Shown piece after piece: positions 3,798 to 17,692 of a stretch of DNA of 64,000 bases (position 1 is its first letter; every line of letters starts with the position of its first letter). Below the pieces are notes generated by a model. That model did no database searches and was not told the origin of the DNA. It saw only the letters and a program-made list of their open reading frames with translations. This DNA comes from an uncultured Candidatus Saccharibacteria bacterium (GTDB lineage Bacteria > Patescibacteriota > Minisyncoccia > Phycocordibacterales > UBA5272). The position numbers were made by a program, and so were the translations under genes. The stretch is taken from the NCBI GenBank assembly GCA_964420875.1, contig CAYQUK010000001.1:9946-73945 (forward strand). The letters run 5' to 3'.

Positions 3798-4250
3798 ATG
3801 CAATTTTTAAAACAATATAATCACAGTGTGTTTTTGTTCCTAGTGCGTGTAGTAGCCGGAGTGGCATTTATAGCTCATGGTTATCCAAAAATCATGAACC
3901 CTGAAATGTTCTCAGGATTTTTTTCATCACTAGGACTTGGTGGTTCTAATATGGTGATGTTTGTCGGTTTGGTGGAGCTGATCGGCGGAGTACTTTTAAT
4001 CGCTGGTGTGTACACTATGTATGCTGGTGTATTGCTAAGTATCGTAATGCTCGTTGCTATTTTCAAAGTTCATTTTGCTAGTGGATACAGCATGATGAAC
4101 AATGGTTATGAGTACCAACTGTTATTACTCGCCGTGTCTCTTGGTATGGTTTTCTCTGGTCCAGGAAAATACTCTCTTTGGGGCGGAAAATGTGGTTGTC
4201 CAAATGGTATGTGTGATCACAAGGGTGGCTCAAAAACTTGTAATTGCTAG
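3798..4250 (+). CDS. DoxX-family membrane protein with Cys-rich C-terminal tail
   Basis: 150 aa, 4 TM helices in a DoxX-like arrangement. C-terminal GGKCGCPNGMCDHKGGSKTCNC. Confidence 0.6.
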   Translation: MQFLKQYNHSVFLFLVRVVAGVAFIAHGYPKIMNPEMFSGFFSSLGLGGSNMVMFVGLVELIGGVLLIAGVYTMYAGVLLSIVMLVAIFKVHFASGYSMMNNGYEYQLLLLAVSLGMVFSGPGKYSLWGGKCGCPNGMCDHKGGSKTCNC

Positions 4251-10036: not shown

Positions 10037-10080
10037 TTTAGCCCCTAGGTCGCTTTGCGACCTAGGGGCTTTTCTTATTT
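10037..10080. terminator. Bidirectional rho-independent terminator
   Basis: Perfect 13-bp stem gcccctaggtcgc/gcgacctaggggc, flanked by an A-run upstream and a T-run downstream, between convergent genes. Confidence 0.8.
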
Positions 10081-10521
10081 GTTCAGCACATATACGCCAG
10101 CTAGCACCAGTACAGTGCCGGAGATTTTTTCGAAAGTGAAGCTTTCCTTGAAAAACATCACAGCACCGATACTGATAATCAGAGGCATCATAGCGAGTAC
10201 GATTGGGATCATTCTCGACATTTCTGCTGACCCATTTTGCGCCTGCTCGATCAGTCGGTAGAACAGTACCAGTCCTATACCGTTAACGATGCCGGCAACG
10301 ATCATCAATAGTCCTTTGGGTTGGGAGATGGTTACGACTATCTCGTTAGCGTTGCCACCAACGAGTGCGTACCACATCAGCGTCGCAAACGCTGTGCCGC
10401 TACCAATCAGTAATGCCATGATAGGGTATGGCATTGGTGCTGCACGTGCGAGGAGTGCGGCTGAACCAAAGAATACAGCGCACATCATAGCTGTGAAAGT
10501 GTTAGACATTATGGTCTCCAA
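10075..10521 (-). CDS. Small DMT/EamA-like 4-TM membrane protein
   Basis: 148 aa, 4 hydrophobic helices with an EamA-half-like pattern. GC content is visibly higher than in neighbouring genes. Confidence 0.45.
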   Translation of the reverse strand: METIMSNTFTAMMCAVFFGSAALLARAAPMPYPIMALLIGSGTAFATLMWYALVGGNANEIVVTISQPKGLLMIVAGIVNGIGLVLFYRLIEQAQNGSAEMSRMIPIVLAMMPLIISIGAVMFFKESFTFEKISGTVLVLAGVYVLNK

Positions 10522-10681
10522 AGCTTAGGAACATTCCTGTTCAGAATCCTATCACAAAAGTAAAATCTTGACATCTATTGCAATATTTTATGTATTGATG
10601 TAATATTTGCATTAGATTGTTCATGTGCTCGTATAGACAAAAAGCAATCGCCAATCCATCGTCACTACTCAGGAGACATTC

Positions 10682-11167
10682 ATGAAGAAACGACACAGTT
10701 TGGCGGCATTCTTTGCTGCCGCACTCGCAAGTATCGGCCTCGCAGCGAGCGCTGCCCAGCCCGACAAGGTCGTCTCGACCCAGATCGACAATCCCGTTGC
10801 AGGTGCAGCTGAAAAACAGTTGCCAGCAATTTCCGTAACTGCTGCACAGGTCTGCGACAAAGAAGTGCCCGCGCAGTACAACGCCATGGACGGCGTGACG
10901 CTGCAAATGAGCTCGAATGTCGCCTCGGTTCAGTACGGCAAGTATCACGGTGCGGCACCCAATGGCACGCCGATAATGCGCACGTCATCGCCGACGGTAA
11001 CGTTCGACCCCCGAACGGCGAAGCCTGTTTATGTTTTGAGTTCCATTTCCAGCGCGTCTCAGGCCAACGTTCAGGCTGCCGTCGGCCGAGGTCATCACGA
11101 TGCCTCAGCCGCGAGCAAGTTCTCGTTCTCGAATCAACCGTTTGCCGGCATCGTCGTTACGACCTGA
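10682..11167 (+). CDS. Secreted hypothetical protein encoded in a GC-rich islet
   Basis: Signal peptide MKKRHSLAAFFAAALASIGLAASAA. AGGAG Shine-Dalgarno 8 nt upstream. Codon usage is strongly GC3-biased, unlike the rest of the window. The minus-strand overlapping ORFs are Arg-rich and look like frame artefacts. Confidence 0.55.
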   Translation: MKKRHSLAAFFAAALASIGLAASAAQPDKVVSTQIDNPVAGAAEKQLPAISVTAAQVCDKEVPAQYNAMDGVTLQMSSNVASVQYGKYHGAAPNGTPIMRTSSPTVTFDPRTAKPVYVLSSISSASQANVQAAVGRGHHDASAASKFSFSNQPFAGIVVTT

Positions 11168-11298
11168 CTTCTCCGCTTGGGCACCACGTAGCCTTGGCTA
11201 CGTGGCCAACAACCTATGCGCACTGGGAGATTAAAAATCTTTCAGTGCGCACAACAAACTCTTTTCAACTCAAAAGGTTGCGAGGCGTTTTTTTTATT

Positions 11299-11373
11299 TG
11301 GTGTCCTCGGCAGGAATTGAACCCACATCAATCCCTTAGGACGGGACTGTTCTATCCGTTGAACTACGAGGAC
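11299..11373 (-). tRNA. tRNA-Arg (anticodon CCU), CCA encoded
   Basis: Reverse complement folds as gtcctcg|ta|gttc-aacggata-gaac|a|gtccc-gtCCTaa-gggat|tgat|gtggg-ttcaatt-cctgc|cgaggac|a|cca. Confidence 0.7.
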
Positions 11374-11699: not shown

Positions 11700-11775
11700 G
11701 CTTGGATAGCTCAGTTGGTAGAGCGCTTCCCTGAAGAGGAATAGGTCCCCAGTTCGAGCCTGGGTCCAAGCACCA
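11700..11775 (+). tRNA. tRNA-Phe (anticodon GAA), CCA encoded
   Basis: gcttgga|ta|gctc-agttggta-gagc|g|cttcc-ctGAAga-ggaat|aggtc|cccag-ttcgagc-ctggg|tccaagc|a|cca. Confidence 0.8.
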
Positions 11776-11821: not shown

Positions 11822-12355
11822 TTAAATGCTTTTTACTTTTATCTTTGCTTGTCTCGCTTTGTCTACTTTTGGCATTCTGATTATAAGTAGTCCATGCTTC
11901 TCGACTGCCTCAGCCTCCTCGATCTCAATCTCATGAGGGAGTAGTATGGTGCGAGAGAAATTGCCCCAATACAATTCACGATAGAAATAGTCATCATCAG
12001 CCACTTGTCCATTAGCCTCACGGCGACCTTTGATAGTTACCATGTCACGAGTGATAGACAGGTGTAGGTCTTCTGGTTTTACTCCTGCTACCATGGCTTC
12101 AATTATTATTTCTGTGCCTGTCTGATATACATCAACAGATAGCTCGCCGACCTCTTCTTCATACTCGTCCTCAACAGCAACATGAGCTGGTCTTTTTACA
12201 GCTTTTGTCTCAGGGGCACTACGACGAGTTTTCATTGGCATCTCGTCCTCATCATCCATCTCATCACTATTAATATCGATGATGTCCTCGTCATCATCTT
12301 CTACTGTTATAGACCCAGCGAGTCTTTCAAAAAAAGTTTTTTTGTCTTTGAGCAT
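11822..12355 (-). CDS. Hsp20/alpha-crystallin small heat-shock protein
   Basis: Alpha-crystallin domain (VDVYQTGTEIIIEAMVAGVKPEDL...GLLIIRMPK) with an acidic N-terminal extension. 177 aa. Confidence 0.8.
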   Translation of the reverse strand: MLKDKKTFFERLAGSITVEDDDEDIIDINSDEMDDEDEMPMKTRRSAPETKAVKRPAHVAVEDEYEEEVGELSVDVYQTGTEIIIEAMVAGVKPEDLHLSITRDMVTIKGRREANGQVADDDYFYRELYWGNFSRTILLPHEIEIEEAEAVEKHGLLIIRMPKVDKARQAKIKVKSI

Positions 12356-12530
12356 GTTGAAATAAAATTATTCTAATACTTGTAGTATATAGACAATATT
12401 TACTCGTTACTAGACAAAAACCAAATCTAACTGTGGATAGGGAATGTTCTGGTATTTTGTTTTTAAATATTTTAAATGCTAGTATTAAATAAGTACTGCA
12501 TCCGTGGTACGTCTACTCTGGGAGAAGTGT

Positions 12531-12968
12531 ATGAAAGTGATTCGTGTTTTGGGGCTCCTGCTTTTGGGGCTCATCTGTTCTTTTTTGCTGGTGCTGGCAC
12601 CAGATCTCGGTTCGGGGCTGAAAGCGTCCGGCACCAACGTTGCGTGGTTGAACATCTGTGCCCTAACTGGCATCGGTCTGGCTGCTTCGGTGCTGTTCGT
12701 TGAAGTCTTTCCGAAAGGTCACGTCAGTGGTTTGCATTTTCCGCAGTCGCTCTCGCTGGCTCTTATGGCAGCCTCGTTAGTCGTTGGATTGATCTCCTCC
12801 GTTTCTGTGCTCACGACTGACTACTCCGGGAACTCGGCAGCCGGTCAGATATTGGCTCGTTCATCGATACTGCTCTCCTTCGTCATGGCGACAGTAGCCA
12901 CACACCTTTCGGTCGCACTCTTCCGCTACGGCGAAAAGCTTCCTGTTCAAGACGGTGTAGCTGCTTAA
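12531..12968 (+). CDS. Hypothetical 4-TM membrane protein in a second GC-rich islet
   Basis: GC-rich codons. Start chosen at ATG 12531 (MKVIRVLG...) with a purine-rich GGGAGAAG Shine-Dalgarno-like sequence upstream. The tabulated ORF 12504..12968 is in the same frame with a longer N-terminus. Confidence 0.45.
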   Translation: MKVIRVLGLLLLGLICSFLLVLAPDLGSGLKASGTNVAWLNICALTGIGLAASVLFVEVFPKGHVSGLHFPQSLSLALMAASLVVGLISSVSVLTTDYSGNSAAGQILARSSILLSFVMATVATHLSVALFRYGEKLPVQDGVAA

Positions 12969-12991
12969 CGCGAAAGCTGACGCAGTCAAAA

Positions 12992-13020
12992 AAGGCGACC
13001 TTCGGGCCGCCTTTTTTCTT
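12992..13020. terminator. Bidirectional terminator (UUCG tetraloop)
   Basis: aaggcgacc-ttcg-ggccgcctt flanked by A6 and T6 runs. Serves the 12531 gene (+) and valS (-). Confidence 0.7.
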
Positions 13021-13028
13021 TTGATATT

Positions 13029-15182
13029 TTATTGGATAGGCCAAGGCTCGATAATTAGGTCCTTGTTTTGATTTTCAAAGTATTGCCACAGCTCCTCGGT
13101 GATGAATGGCATGAATGGATGCAGGGTGATAATGTTTTCACGCAATATTGTCATCAGTAATACCTTTGCAGAGTCAGCGTCCTCATTGTTTTGTATACGT
13201 AGTTTGTGTGTCTCAATTATCACATCACAAAAAGTCTTCCAAAAATAGTCATATATTTTCTCGCTGGCTATGTGAAGTTTGTATTCCTCTATATCAGTTG
13301 TTATCTCTTTTAACTTTTCTTGCCAAGCTTTATACAGGTTTGTGTCTATCTCGTTTAGAGGGGTATCATATTTTATGCCTTCACATTTTTCAAATACAAA
13401 TCTAGTAGCATTCCAGATTTTGTTAGCAAATTTTTTATAAGCTTCTACTTTTTTAGGGTCTAGGTTCATATCTACTCCTGGAGCATTATTAACAATTAGG
13501 CCCATACGTAAAGCATCGGTACCATATATGTCAGATATTTCTAGTGGAGATATTACGTTACCTTTACTTTTGCTCATTTTCATTCCTTTAGCGTCTCGTA
13601 CTAGCCCGTGTAGATATACATCTTTAAATGGAGATTTACCTGTTGTGTATATACCAAGCATTATCATACGCGCTACCCAGAAAAATAGTATGTCAGCACC
13701 TGTCTCCATTAACTGTGTAGGGTAATATTTTTCAAAATCACCATCACGTGTGTTTTGTAATGTTGCAAATGGCCATTGTCCAGACGAGAACCATGTATCA
13801 AATGTATCTGTGTCCTCGGCTAGATCTGAATTACATTTTTCGCATTTTGTTAATTTATTTTCAATGTCTACATATCCAGAGTCACAATTGGTACATATCT
13901 TTGCAGGTATTTTTATACCCCATACTATTTGTCTAGAGATGTTCCAATCTTGTATGTTTTCCATCCAATGGTTGAAAACTTTTTCATGTTGCTCCGTTAA
14001 TATATTCACTTCTCCATTTTTGGCAGCAGCCATAGCTTTTTCTGCTAGTGGCTTCATGCTTACAAACCATTGCGCCTTAATCTGCGGCTCTATTTCACGC
14101 TCACATTTATAACATACAGGCACTTCATGTGTGTACTTATCTTCAACTTTTACCAGTAATCCTTTTGCGTCCAGTTTTTCTACTATTTTTGAACGAGCAT
14201 CTTTTATGCTCATACCAGCGAACTCGCCAGCAATAGGTAATAGTTTGCCGCGCTCATCTATTATTTGTTCCCAATCTAAATTATGTCGTTTAGCTATTTC
14301 AAAGTCTATTGCTGAATGCCATGGTGTTATTGTCATAGCCCCAGATCCTTTTTCTGGGTCGCCAGCAATATCTTTTATCACTGTAGCTTCTATTTCACCA
14401 CTGATCCATTCGAGTTTTATTTTTTGACCATGAGTGAATTCTGCGTACCGTGCATCGTCAGGGTGTACTACGACGTATTTGTCTCCGAACTTCGTCTCTG
14501 GCCTTACTGTACCTATTGTAAATGGTCCGTATTTAAAATAGTAGAACGGATCTATTTTCGTTTTATACTCTGTCTCTAGATTAGACAGTGAAGTCTGATG
14601 CTTGCTACACCAGTTCACAATTCTCTTTCCACGATATAACAACTTGTCATCTTCTAATTTCTTAAAAGTTTTATACACTGTTTTTATTATGCCATCGTCC
14701 AGTGTGAATACCTCACGTGACCAGTCACAACTAGCACCGAGCTGGCGTATTTGCCCTTCCATGAACTGTTTGTTGAAAAGTGTAAAATCCATTATCTCTT
14801 TATATAGATCTGCGCGTTCCATATCAAATCTTGACCTACCTTCTTTTTCTAATTTCTTCTCGTATACAACTTGAGTTTCAAATCCTGCATGATCTGCTCC
14901 AGGCAACCAAAGTGCACGATAGCCATTCATTCTTTTATATCTTGTTAAGATGTCTTGGATTGTTACAAACAACGCATGTCCAGCATGTAGAGATCCATTA
15001 GCATTTGGTGGTGGCATTATTATTGTATATGTTTTTTCTTTGCCATTATCATCAAGCCTTATTTTATCTTGTGGTAATTTGTCCGGGTTAAAATATCCAG
15101 ATTCTTCCCATTTCTTATATATAGCAGGCTCGACACTCTTTGCGTCATAGGGCTTTTTCAAATTTTCTATATTTGTATTCAT
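13029..15182 (-). CDS. valS: Valyl-tRNA synthetase, compact form lacking the C-terminal coiled-coil
   Basis: PPPNANGSLHAGHAL (HIGH) and KMSKSKGN (KMSKS). CP1 editing-domain region present. 717 aa. Confidence 0.85.
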   Translation of the reverse strand: MNTNIENLKKPYDAKSVEPAIYKKWEESGYFNPDKLPQDKIRLDDNGKEKTYTIIMPPPNANGSLHAGHALFVTIQDILTRYKRMNGYRALWLPGADHAGFETQVVYEKKLEKEGRSRFDMERADLYKEIMDFTLFNKQFMEGQIRQLGASCDWSREVFTLDDGIIKTVYKTFKKLEDDKLLYRGKRIVNWCSKHQTSLSNLETEYKTKIDPFYYFKYGPFTIGTVRPETKFGDKYVVVHPDDARYAEFTHGQKIKLEWISGEIEATVIKDIAGDPEKGSGAMTITPWHSAIDFEIAKRHNLDWEQIIDERGKLLPIAGEFAGMSIKDARSKIVEKLDAKGLLVKVEDKYTHEVPVCYKCEREIEPQIKAQWFVSMKPLAEKAMAAAKNGEVNILTEQHEKVFNHWMENIQDWNISRQIVWGIKIPAKICTNCDSGYVDIENKLTKCEKCNSDLAEDTDTFDTWFSSGQWPFATLQNTRDGDFEKYYPTQLMETGADILFFWVARMIMLGIYTTGKSPFKDVYLHGLVRDAKGMKMSKSKGNVISPLEISDIYGTDALRMGLIVNNAPGVDMNLDPKKVEAYKKFANKIWNATRFVFEKCEGIKYDTPLNEIDTNLYKAWQEKLKEITTDIEEYKLHIASEKIYDYFWKTFCDVIIETHKLRIQNNEDADSAKVLLMTILRENIITLHPFMPFITEELWQYFENQNKDLIIEPWPIQ

Positions 15183-15281
15183 ATACCAATACTAACATAT
15201 ACAATATATATGTATAAAGCCTCTCAGTTTTGTGTTCTATATGTATATTGTGTTAGTATAGTCAGACTAAAAGATTTTAAA

Positions 15282-15725
15282 ATGCAAAAAACACAATCAA
15301 AGATAAGCAAGGCAGACAGCAATCATATATTTAAAAAAGTAAAAGCTAAAAAGGGGGTAGATGGACTAGGGCTATTTGCTGCTGAGGATATCAAAAAGGG
15401 CGAGATCATAATCGAGTACACTGGCAATATATTGTTAGGCAAAGAGTCTCGTGAGGCCAAGGCCAACATGTATCTGTTTGAGATTAATAGAGACAAGACC
15501 ATAGACGGGTCACCAAGGTGGAATCTGGCGAGATATTGCAACCATAGTTGTGATGGTAATGCAGAGAGCGAGATTAAAAAGGGGCGCGTATTTATAATCG
15601 CTACAAAAAATATAAAAGATGGTGAGGAGATAGTCTATGACTATGGCAAGGAGTTCTTTGAAGAGTACATTGCTCCAAAGGGCTGCATGTGTGGTACTAA
15701 AAAGTGTAAAAAACCGAGACAGTAG
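15282..15725 (+). CDS. SET-domain protein-lysine N-methyltransferase
   Basis: GLGLFAAEDIKKGEII, NHSCDGNA (NHSC pseudoknot motif), EEIVYDYG (ELxxDY-like), and a post-SET Cys cluster CMCGTKKC. Start at the internal ATG of the tabulated ORF 15210..15725. Confidence 0.7.
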   Translation: MQKTQSKISKADSNHIFKKVKAKKGVDGLGLFAAEDIKKGEIIIEYTGNILLGKESREAKANMYLFEINRDKTIDGSPRWNLARYCNHSCDGNAESEIKKGRVFIIATKNIKDGEEIVYDYGKEFFEEYIAPKGCMCGTKKCKKPRQ

Positions 15726-15760
15726 ATATATAGGGTGTTATACTTTGAGTATATTAGCGT

Positions 15761-17692
15761 ATGCCAGTATCACCAACAGCGCCACCTTTAACACGTAGTC
15801 CGGCACCAGCTCCACCTGACAGATTAGATGCCAGTTTTTGGGAGTCTGAGTTTAATAGAAGAGAAGCAAGAGTAGAAACTTTTATTAATTTAGCCTTCAT
15901 TCAATATAAAACAAATATTGATTCCAACATCGAGGATGCTGATAGGCTTTATAATCAGGAAATAATAGATGCTGTTGAGGAGATTTATGATATCGATTTT
16001 CCTGCTGACTATGAGGTAGATGCCAGCACAAAGACTCAACCAGAAAAGAAAATGATAAAGGGTAAGTTAAAAGATCTGCGAACCCGTAAAGAAAAGGTTA
16101 TTAGGGGCTGTATGGATAGATCCCCTTTTGGTTCGCGTAAAGATGAGATAAAAGATGCCAAAGAAAATACTTTAGAAAAAATAGCTGAGAGAAATAGGGT
16201 AAGTCTCGGTAAAATTAGATCCGCTGTCGGCACTTCTTATAAAAATATTGCAAAAGTTTTAGGAGATATAGAAAAAAGAAAAAATGAAGGTAAGAAAATT
16301 TCAGATGCAGAAAGAATAATTTTCGAAGAAGATGTTAGTCGCAACTTGTCAGAGTATCAAACAAGCATGGCTAGCCTCGATAGGTTAATGAGTATACCTG
16401 CTACTGATAGAGCTTGTCTGATGTTGGCTGGTTCAGCTACTCCAGACTCTGAGCAAATTAAATTTGTAGATACTATTAACACTATAAAAACTCAGGTTGA
16501 GGGTGCCGGTCCAGCAGACCCTAATTCTATTTTAGTAAAGATTAAAACTTCATTAGATAAGCCATTTGACGAAACAAAAGAAAAGTTTGTAAAAGCTGCT
16601 GAGTCTATGGATGCTATTACAAAGCAACTACAAAAAATCCAGTCAGACATAGAAGAAGAAATAAAGAAAGAGAAAAAAGTTGACCCAGACAATAGGGCTG
16701 AATTTTTAATGCGTATAAGTATGGAAGAGTCCAATCTTGATCTGGCTAGGATTGATTTTGCGAACGCTTGGACAAAGCTCAGTGTAGACTTGATGGCAAT
16801 AGGGGAATTACCAACACCAAAACAATTTGGACAACATGACGCTCTGGAGAGTCGAGATAATTATTTGCGAAATGACCTTATTGTTAAGTTGAAAGAAAAA
16901 GTTAATGGGCATATTTCTCCGAAAGATCAACGTGAGAATGCGAAGTCTTTAAATACACGTGTGAGTGATATAGAAAAAATGATGAAGACTGATTATGACA
17001 GTCTAGAGATAGGTAAGGGGTATACAGATAGCCAAAAAGACACATATAGGATACTCATAGACGTCGAAGAGATAGCTATTGCTGATATGGAGGAAGAGTT
17101 AACACATTTAACACCTGTCGTAGATGACCCAACAAAAACAATGATAGAAGGTGTGGTGTTGAGAGCTAAAGAGAGAATAGAAAAAGCTAAAGAAAAAGTA
17201 GAAAAGAAAAGAGTCGCAAAAGAAAAAGAGATACAAGAAAAATTTGACTCAATAGATAAAGGCATAGAGGAAGTTGAGAGCAGGTTAAGAGATATAACCA
17301 GAAAAGATGCAGAGGGTAAAGCTCAGTTTGAGGAAAACAAAGAGCGTGCTGGAGTATTACAAAAACTTTGGGCACCAACTAAAAAGTATGACGGTGGCAC
17401 AAAATACCAAGACCACGCGTCTATGGTTGATACTTTGTTTGATCCAAGAGAAGAATCTAATAAAGTAAAAGAGTGGATAAAAGATTTACCAGAAACAAAT
17501 GAAGGAGAGTTAAAGTTGAAAAAGAAAATGATGAAAAAAGCTCGTCGTTTATCTAGAAGAATAACCTCAGCTAAGTGGAGACATTATTTTTCAATGGATA
17601 CAAAAAATCAAGCAAAGTATTGGGGAGATATGGCGAGGAATAAAACTTTTGACATAATGGGTAATGCTATAGATAGAATTGTTTACCCATAG
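15761..17692 (+). CDS. Large hypothetical protein. Pro-rich N-terminus, then a highly charged K/E-rich predicted coiled coil. No TM helix.
   Basis: 643-aa ORF with no recognisable catalytic motifs. Heptad-like charged segments. Confidence 0.5.
   Translation: MPVSPTAPPLTRSPAPAPPDRLDASFWESEFNRREARVETFINLAFIQYKTNIDSNIEDADRLYNQEIIDAVEEIYDIDFPADYEVDASTKTQPEKKMIKGKLKDLRTRKEKVIRGCMDRSPFGSRKDEIKDAKENTLEKIAERNRVSLGKIRSAVGTSYKNIAKVLGDIEKRKNEGKKISDAERIIFEEDVSRNLSEYQTSMASLDRLMSIPATDRACLMLAGSATPDSEQIKFVDTINTIKTQVEGAGPADPNSILVKIKTSLDKPFDETKEKFVKAAESMDAITKQLQKIQSDIEEEIKKEKKVDPDNRAEFLMRISMEESNLDLARIDFANAWTKLSVDLMAIGELPTPKQFGQHDALESRDNYLRNDLIVKLKEKVNGHISPKDQRENAKSLNTRVSDIEKMMKTDYDSLEIGKGYTDSQKDTYRILIDVEEIAIADMEEELTHLTPVVDDPTKTMIEGVVLRAKERIEKAKEKVEKKRVAKEKEIQEKFDSIDKGIEEVESRLRDITRKDAEGKAQFEENKERAGVLQKLWAPTKKYDGGTKYQDHASMVDTLFDPREESNKVKEWIKDLPETNEGELKLKKKMMKKARRLSRRITSAKWRHYFSMDTKNQAKYWGDMARNKTFDIMGNAIDRIVYP

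Follow-up and report, generated by a model that had tools for sequence, protein, structure and literature searches.

A GC-rich membrane-protein gene whose versions are distributed against the genomic backbone in Candidatus Saccharibacteria

In replacement flexible genomic islands, described by Lopez-Perez, Martin-Cuadrado and Rodriguez-Valera in 2014, the same locus is occupied in all strains by divergent content between conserved flanks, this content is exchanged by homologous recombination, and it usually encodes exposed structures (PMC4033161). Among the known kinds of system, these islands are the best match for a single membrane-protein gene between hsp20 and valS of an uncultured Candidatus Saccharibacteria bacterium, from which one stretch of 64,000 nt was analysed (the window, GC 39.6%). 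As in such islands, the cassette lies at the same locus, with flanks of 96-100% identity around a core of 48-65%, the distribution of its versions conflicts with the backbone (93.6% identity to the distant lineage L003, 64.4% to the close lineage L007), and its content is predicted from hydropathy to be associated with the envelope. However, replacement flexible genomic islands are multi-gene, span tens of kb and have recognisable functions, O-antigen or glycosylation for example, whereas the cassette is a single gene of 0.44 kb (438 nt). Unlike the islands, it also has a compositional anomaly common to all of its versions, and the surface exposure of its product is presumed.

A second comparison is with compositionally atypical, horizontally acquired islets and orphan genes, for which amelioration of the Lawrence-Ochman type is the model. 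Like these, the cassette has a GC content and codon usage far from those of the genome, is an orphan, and is situated in a variable region with tRNA genes nearby; unlike them, it comes without a donor, mobility gene, flanking repeat, empty site or clear sign of amelioration. Orphan genes in variable regions are common in CPR genomes, and the gene is a modest curiosity that represents no new kind of system. What is new here is the comparative result, as the gene versions are distributed against the backbone. If true, the locus would be a compact example of how a competent epibiont with a reduced genome varies its envelope via single-gene cassettes in fixed slots.

The gene, its product and its flanks

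The features of the locus, including a first GC-rich patch upstream (islet 1), are as follows.

10075-10509, minus strand: islet-1 single-domain EamA (DMT superfamily) membrane protein, 144 aa, Pfam EamA E = 1.5e-7, GC3 0.54
10682-11167, plus strand: islet-1 signal-peptide protein, 161 aa, GC 58%, GC3 0.64, hypervariable
11299-11373, minus strand: tRNA-Arg(CCT), native composition
between tRNA-Arg and tRNA-Phe: ORF of 94 aa, native composition
11700-11775, plus strand: tRNA-Phe, native composition
11822-12355, minus strand: hsp20, native composition
12356-12530: AT-rich intergenic region between the divergent hsp20 (minus) and membrane-protein gene (plus)
12457-12485, plus strand: candidate sigma-70-type promoter (TTGTTT, 17 nt, TAGTAT)
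12520-12526, plus strand: Shine-Dalgarno-like GGGAGAA, ending 4 nt before ATG 12531
12531-12968, plus strand: membrane-protein CDS, version A, from the ORF list, 145 aa, GC 53.9%, GC3 0.59
12620-12955, plus strand: cassette core, spanning TM2 to the C-tail and strongly divergent between classes A and B, 48-65% nucleotide identity to L006/L007
12988-13017: bidirectional intrinsic terminator, from inverted repeat and fold
13029-15182, minus strand: valS

The plus strand of 12476-13025 contains one long conserved ORF, the stop of which ends at 12968. In a preliminary description of this DNA the gene began at 12476 and its protein had 146 aa; both values need correction. The ATG at 12476 opens a separate, out-of-frame ORF of 75 aa, and in the alignment relatives carry an 8-nt and a 1-nt indel between 12476 and 12531. 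As these indels shift the frame, only ATG 12531 is conserved as a start, which gives a protein of 145 aa. Its location between hsp20 and valS was described correctly, and all copies, drawn from JGI, Logan and NCBI assemblies of many runs, occupy this same slot, with valS (end at 13029) convergent to the gene. With type IV pilus genes, a short ValRS and a SET-domain protein, the gene content of the window agrees with an assignment to the Saccharibacteria.

Hydropathy predicts four hydrophobic helices (residues 1-30, 37-61, 70-96 and 111-131), in line with the initial reading as a 4-TM membrane protein, and from the positive-inside rule the topology is probably N-in/C-in. The AlphaFold secondary structure concurs on the helices, while the AlphaFold2 model itself, built from a 3-sequence alignment, has a pLDDT of 47 and a pTM of 0.29 and is unusable for structural inference. 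An internal 2+2 helix duplication has a weak signal in version A (z of 2.8, p of about 0.02) and none in version B (z = 0.45). With about 145 aa and four hydrophobic helices, the protein is like the small DMT/SMR transporters, such as the islet-1 EamA protein, in size and topology only; a conserved acidic residue at the end of TM2 and a conserved Arg and His in TM4 also enter this comparison. Unlike those transporters, it matches no Pfam or NCBIfam family at E <= 1, and its hhalign alignment to the islet-1 EamA protein has a probability of 0.3%. An idea that the two islet membrane proteins form a paired small transporter was rejected, as they are unrelated.

The homologue search that had been proposed did find relatives, but none beyond the Saccharibacteria clade. 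A word-indexed search of 5.8 billion proteins returned three clusters, and 1.84 billion representative proteins, searched exhaustively with an HMMER profile, yielded only two relatives, both from Saccharibacteria and both from the hsp20-valS slot. Profile searches of PHROGs, PADLOC and the PDB gave nothing credible, the best sub-credible matches being to phrog_8793 (E 0.008) and a CorA-like model (E 0.016), for version B only. A phage origin was tried and rejected, with no match by tblastn against 50,697 phage records or in a scan of IMG/VR. Among genome contigs, the scan yielded a single MAG, GCA_964368915.1 (uncultured Candidatus Saccharibacteria bacterium), and two scans for an empty site or distant relatives, one of metagenomes with an hsp20 alignment and one with the invariant promoter region as a DNA pattern, had no match in a collection that apparently does not contain the lineage. 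The family is thus restricted to a narrow Saccharibacteria clade, with no relatives detectable beyond it in these searches.

Across the three lineages, few parts of the locus are as well conserved as the divergent intergenic region upstream. Its identity is 96-100% to L006/L007 and still 91-97% to the distant L003, where the hsp20 coding sequence is 85% identical. It presumably holds the promoters of both divergent genes, and its strong conservation suggests either a regulatory region or a position inside a recombination tract. The candidate promoter at 12457-12485, which would serve the membrane-protein gene, was read by eye from the sequence and is absent from the consensus-scan list. A TG lies one base upstream of its -10 hexamer (extended -10), and the hexamers, spacer and TG are invariant in the three-lineage alignment. 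Further down, the GGAG at 12521-12524 lies 6 nt ahead of ATG 12531, and GGAGAA is kept in all three gene versions, with indels in the sequence just upstream.

At the other end of the gene, the terminator reads AAAAAAGGCGACC-UUCG-GGCCGCCUUUUUU, with the layout A6, stem GGCGACC, loop UUCG (cUUCGg), stem GGCCGCC and U6. Its stem has 6 GC base pairs and one mismatch, and with U6 downstream and A6 upstream it qualifies as an intrinsic terminator on both strands. Because of the A run on one side and the U run on the other, it is bidirectional and common to the membrane-protein gene and the convergent valS. A default terminator scan omitted it, probably through the stem mismatch. The preliminary description had counted this UUCG hairpin as part of the GC-rich islet. 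The hairpin is indeed present, but it belongs to the conserved backbone and not to the cassette: in L007 one stem base and one base of the A run are changed, and it is otherwise identical across the three lineages.

Gene versions and the backbone

The relatives compared were the close L006, L007 and L008, of which L007 and L008 belong to the MAG, and the distant lineage of L003 and L004. Three versions of the gene are found: version A, in the window and in identical copies elsewhere, version A′, with 88% amino acid identity, and version B, with 51-52%. The reading frame is whole in all three across 145 codons, the sole indel being of 3 nt (one codon). In codons 1-30, A differs from B by 10 synonymous changes and 1 non-synonymous change (dS 0.5, dN/dS 0.03), as against a dN/dS of about 0.48 beyond codon 30; between A and A′, where changes are few, dN/dS is about 1.1. 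Amino acid identity of A and B accordingly falls from 96% in TM1 and 92% in loop 1 to 17-58% from TM2 to the C-tail, although conserved residues are dotted through this variable part (W39, C43, H69-F70, D97-Y98, R110, H125 and the C-terminal FRYGxKxP). Judged from a frame retained at 52% identity and from the dN/dS of the first 30 codons, the ORF is a real gene. The fast-evolving part from TM2 to the C-tail may have a role in the envelope or at the interface with host or phage.

Over about 23 kb, the median identity between the window and the MAG (L007 and L008) is 0.89-0.92. All blocks below about 0.75 identity lie inside 10.6-16.2 kb, and there are four of them, at about 50-75%.

10,600-11,250: islet-1 secreted protein
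12,500-12,975: exactly the membrane-protein gene
13,400-15,100: core of valS
15,750-16,150: 5′ end of an ORF of 643 aa

The stretches between these four blocks are 93-100% identical and thus exceed the genome median. In the mismatch profile the block at the membrane-protein gene has sharp edges, at about 12,500 and 12,975. The left one lies around 12,490-12,620 and the right one between the last four codons and the terminator, and the core of the cassette is flanked by sequence with 96-100% identity to L006/L007.

The versions do not follow the relatedness of the genomes that carry them. Compared with L007, the window has nucleotide identities of 94.4% in hsp20 (100% at the amino acid level) and 93.5% in the SET gene, and of only 64.4% in the membrane-protein gene. 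Compared with L003, the order is turned around: hsp20 is 85% and SET 87% identical, other genes are 64-81% identical, and the membrane-protein gene, at 93.6%, is the most identical of the nine genes compared. A close relative with flanks of about 94% identity thus carries B, whereas a far more distant relative carries A′. Moreover, the samples include some in which A, and others in which B, stands next to one identical hsp20 protein. As the distribution of the versions contradicts the backbone, and as the identical hsp20 occurs with both A and B, the versions have been exchanged between lineages. The earlier suggestion of a recombination hotspot is supported by this conflict, together with the confinement of the low-identity blocks to 10.6-16.2 kb. 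The other three blocks seem to have undergone replacement of the same kind.

The reading that I consider probable, with some reserve, is that of a replaceable single-gene cassette in a fixed slot, exchanged by homologous recombination, whose GC-richness stems from an ancient acquisition from a higher-GC source. There are at least two deeply diverged classes, A and B, and conserved flanks would have allowed homologous recombination to carry them from one lineage to another. On the left, the flank would be the intergenic region; the first ~30 codons are conserved as well, but this would be due to purifying selection. On the right, it would run from the last codons through the terminator into the 3′ end of valS. 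Saccharibacteria are naturally competent and integrate DNA by homologous recombination with flanks of about 1 kb (PMC10633639), and the window contains type IV pilus genes, which makes such a cassette exchange plausible. Natural competence could account for both the uptake of the DNA and its later shuffling.

A target of a diversity-generating retroelement was considered separately and rejected. There is no second copy of any part of either islet in the 64-kb window (word size 7), and no reverse transcriptase is found among the genes called in 2.5-23 kb.

The valS gene itself is a further observation from this region. Its core (13400-15100) has about 66% nucleotide identity to valS of L003 and likewise to that of L007, although these two share 86% identity. 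At the 3′ end (13029-13400) and in the first ~80 nt (15100-15182), most 50-nt bins have an identity of 90-98% to L007, and one hsp20, 100% identical, occurs with a valS type of 717 aa and with one of 713 aa. The gene is a mosaic, in which recombination seems to have replaced the core of an essential aminoacyl-tRNA synthetase with that of a divergent, AT-rich lineage. Adjoining valS is the SET-domain protein (15210-15725, plus strand, Pfam SET E = 3e-24), followed by the ORF of 643 aa (15761-17692, plus strand), a protein without a Pfam family. A sharply bounded divergent block takes up the first ~400 nt of this ORF, with about 25-32 mismatches per 50 nt against L007, and the remainder is about 90-95% identical. 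L003 and L004 possess a second, AT-rich SET-domain gene (L003 1584-1979) between tRNA-Phe and hsp20, a difference in presence and absence.

Origin of the GC-rich codons

That the second islet is compositionally anomalous, with GC-rich codons, had been noticed by eye and can now be confirmed. Against the background of all 438-nt windows (mean GC 0.396, sd 0.041), the ORF at 12531-12968 departs significantly, with z = 3.5 for its GC of 53.9%, a value reached by only 0.7% of these windows. In a 400-nt GC profile from 7 to 19 kb, values of at least 0.54 occur in the two patches only. The GC3 of 0.59 compares with 0.342 ± 0.058 (maximum 0.495) for 60 other ORFs of the window (z = 4.2). When the amino acids of the protein itself were recoded with the native codon usage of the window, a GC3 of 0.336 ± 0.038 was expected, from which the gene deviates by z = 6.8. 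Its serine codons illustrate the difference, as 13 of the 17 are TCG or TCC, as against about 11% in the background. The anomaly is the same as that of islet 1, as was proposed, the two genes of which have GC3 values of 0.54 and 0.64. It is not an effect of amino acid composition or hydrophobicity, because other membrane proteins of the window have native values (MurJ 0.31, DoxX 0.36, and a Wzy-like protein within the range 0.31-0.36).

The description of the patch as foreign-looking thus holds for its composition, and a foreign origin is plausible, but neither a donor nor a mobility signature nor an empty site accompanies it. No integrase was called in the neighbourhood, and there are no significant flanking direct repeats or att-like repeats. 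About 755 bp, which include hsp20, separate the gene from tRNA-Phe, so that it is not inserted directly at the 3′ end of a tRNA gene. In every related contig recovered, from a backbone identity of about 94% down to about 65-85%, the gene is present between hsp20 and valS. A donor homologue outside the Saccharibacteria was found neither among the 1.84 billion proteins nor in phage or IMG/VR.

In favour of a transfer I counted how far the codon usage departs from the native one, that the gene is an orphan, that its surroundings are variable and rich in tRNA genes, and that Saccharibacteria are competent and live on Actinobacteria. A transfer that was simple and recent has against it the missing donor, empty site and mobility genes, a GC3 that is equally high at a dS of about 1 and the balance of polarised changes described below. 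The GC-rich, rare-codon composition would most likely derive from an ancient acquisition from a higher-GC source. Actinobacteria are high-GC organisms and, as hosts of cultivated Saccharibacteria, would be the obvious suspects as donors. Saccharibacteria grow on Actinobacteria hosts (PMC10633639).

Alternatively, the gene may be native, with its GC-rich rare codons kept by selection and no relic of a transfer at all. This appears unlikely to me, though it deserves serious attention; the codons might, for example, slow translation and so aid membrane insertion or secretion, or keep the expression of a costly envelope protein low. The high GC3 is found in all versions of the membrane-protein gene (0.56-0.59, despite the A-B dS of about 1) and of the islet-1 secreted protein in spite of saturating synonymous divergence. 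The products of the three anomalous genes are without exception membrane or exported proteins, and the lack of a donor, mobility signature and empty site is also what a native gene would show. Polarised changes point in the same direction. GC>AT and AT>GC changes are nearly balanced (11:8, 39:34 and 22:16, pooled 72:58), with ratios similar to those of a lepA control, in a test that is small, parsimony-based and dependent on distant outgroups, which weakens its weight for a native gene. If the composition were decaying towards the native GC, about 85:45 would be expected (calculated with an assumed equilibrium GC of 0.40), and the observed ratio therefore fits maintained GC-richness better than a fading signature of transfer.

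Several observations speak against a native gene, however. Other membrane-protein genes in this genome, those of MurJ, DoxX and the Wzy-like protein, have a fully native GC3. There is no excess of mRNA secondary structure, as the folding energy is no different from that of shuffled sequences (z = -0.08 for version A and -1.66 for version B), and GC enrichment over the whole gene has no known mechanism that would demand it. An old acquisition from a very GC-rich donor that is partly ameliorated fits the data; selective maintenance fits too.

A further possibility, to which I give rather little credence, is that the GC-rich codons are a maintained property of shuffled envelope cassettes, namely those of the 4-TM protein and of the islet-1 secreted protein, which would set the specificity of the epibiont towards host or phage, and no residue of one transfer long ago. 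The codons would then be kept by repeated import from the gene pool of the high-GC Actinobacteria hosts or by codon selection. In any case there is a puzzle, as foreign-looking genes stay GC-rich across deeply diverged versions, contrary to simple amelioration. The two cassettes are candidate determinants of host range or phage resistance in the Saccharibacteria, which are now genetically manipulable (PMC10633639).

Relation to islet 1

In the preliminary description the two islets, which bracket tRNA genes, were thought to be possible remnants of one larger insertion. The corresponding explanation, in which one larger piece of foreign DNA was inserted and then split or lost in part, so that only its ends survive as islets 1 and 2, is very improbable. 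Both islets have similar GC3 excess and rare-codon preferences, lie within 3 kb and flank tRNA genes, and both contain fast-diverging orphan envelope proteins. Yet the segment between them, which the same description rightly called native-looking (tRNA-Arg, the 94-aa ORF, tRNA-Phe and hsp20), is native in composition and is found in the same order in every relative (tRNA-Arg, small gene, tRNA-Phe, an optional SET gene and hsp20). The islets are adjacent in no relative examined, integrase and att repeats are missing, and the two membrane proteins are unrelated by hhalign. Nor are the versions of the islets linked: B occurs with two versions of the secreted protein, and A and A′ with two others, where L006 was paired with L013-L016 on a shared run-accession series only.

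The 161-aa protein of islet 1 is itself variable. Its versions are 60% and 42% identical at the amino acid level, and that of L003, which gives no tblastn match at E 1e-5, was aligned by MAFFT only. The N-terminal signal-like segment is conserved, GC3 is 0.63-0.64 in all four versions, and no homologues were found beyond the clade. The EamA relatives, in comparison, are 88-90% identical, while in the L003/L004 lineage no EamA gene was called or detected by tblastn.

Finally, it is scarcely credible that the patch is no protein gene and represents instead a structured RNA rich in GC, an ORF that is spurious or a chimeric assembly: although long chance ORFs do arise in GC-rich DNA (an antisense ORF of 187 aa in L007 is an example) and the protein has no family match or confident fold, it is the plus frame alone that is conserved across versions, codons 1-30 are under strong purifying selection, and the same junctions occur in at least eight independent assemblies from three sources (JGI, Logan and NCBI), which disposes of the chimerism raised at the outset. 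Structured RNA as the cause of the GC-richness was likewise rejected on the folding energies, which equal those of shuffles, and on Rfam, where only tRNAs reach the gathering score and the weak sub-threshold matches are confined to the terminator.

Other small GC-rich elements occur around islet 1. In the place of EamA, L004 has about 400 bp (220-616) with a tiny GC-rich ORF (MEDWILEVFGVRPVRR) and GC-rich hairpins, and in the MAG contig L008 (reverse complement, 3890-4249) the islet-1 terminator is followed, ahead of tRNA-Arg, by 359 additional bp with another tiny GC-rich ORF (MSFFQELLALLEGRRPTGPRG). These ORFs may be remnants of other cassettes. In the window, a perfect 14-bp GC-rich hairpin, AGCCCCTAGGTCGC-TTT-GCGACCTAGGGGCT, lies at 10040-10070 between the convergent glutaredoxin and EamA genes, where it marks the left border of islet 1 and acts as another bidirectional terminator.
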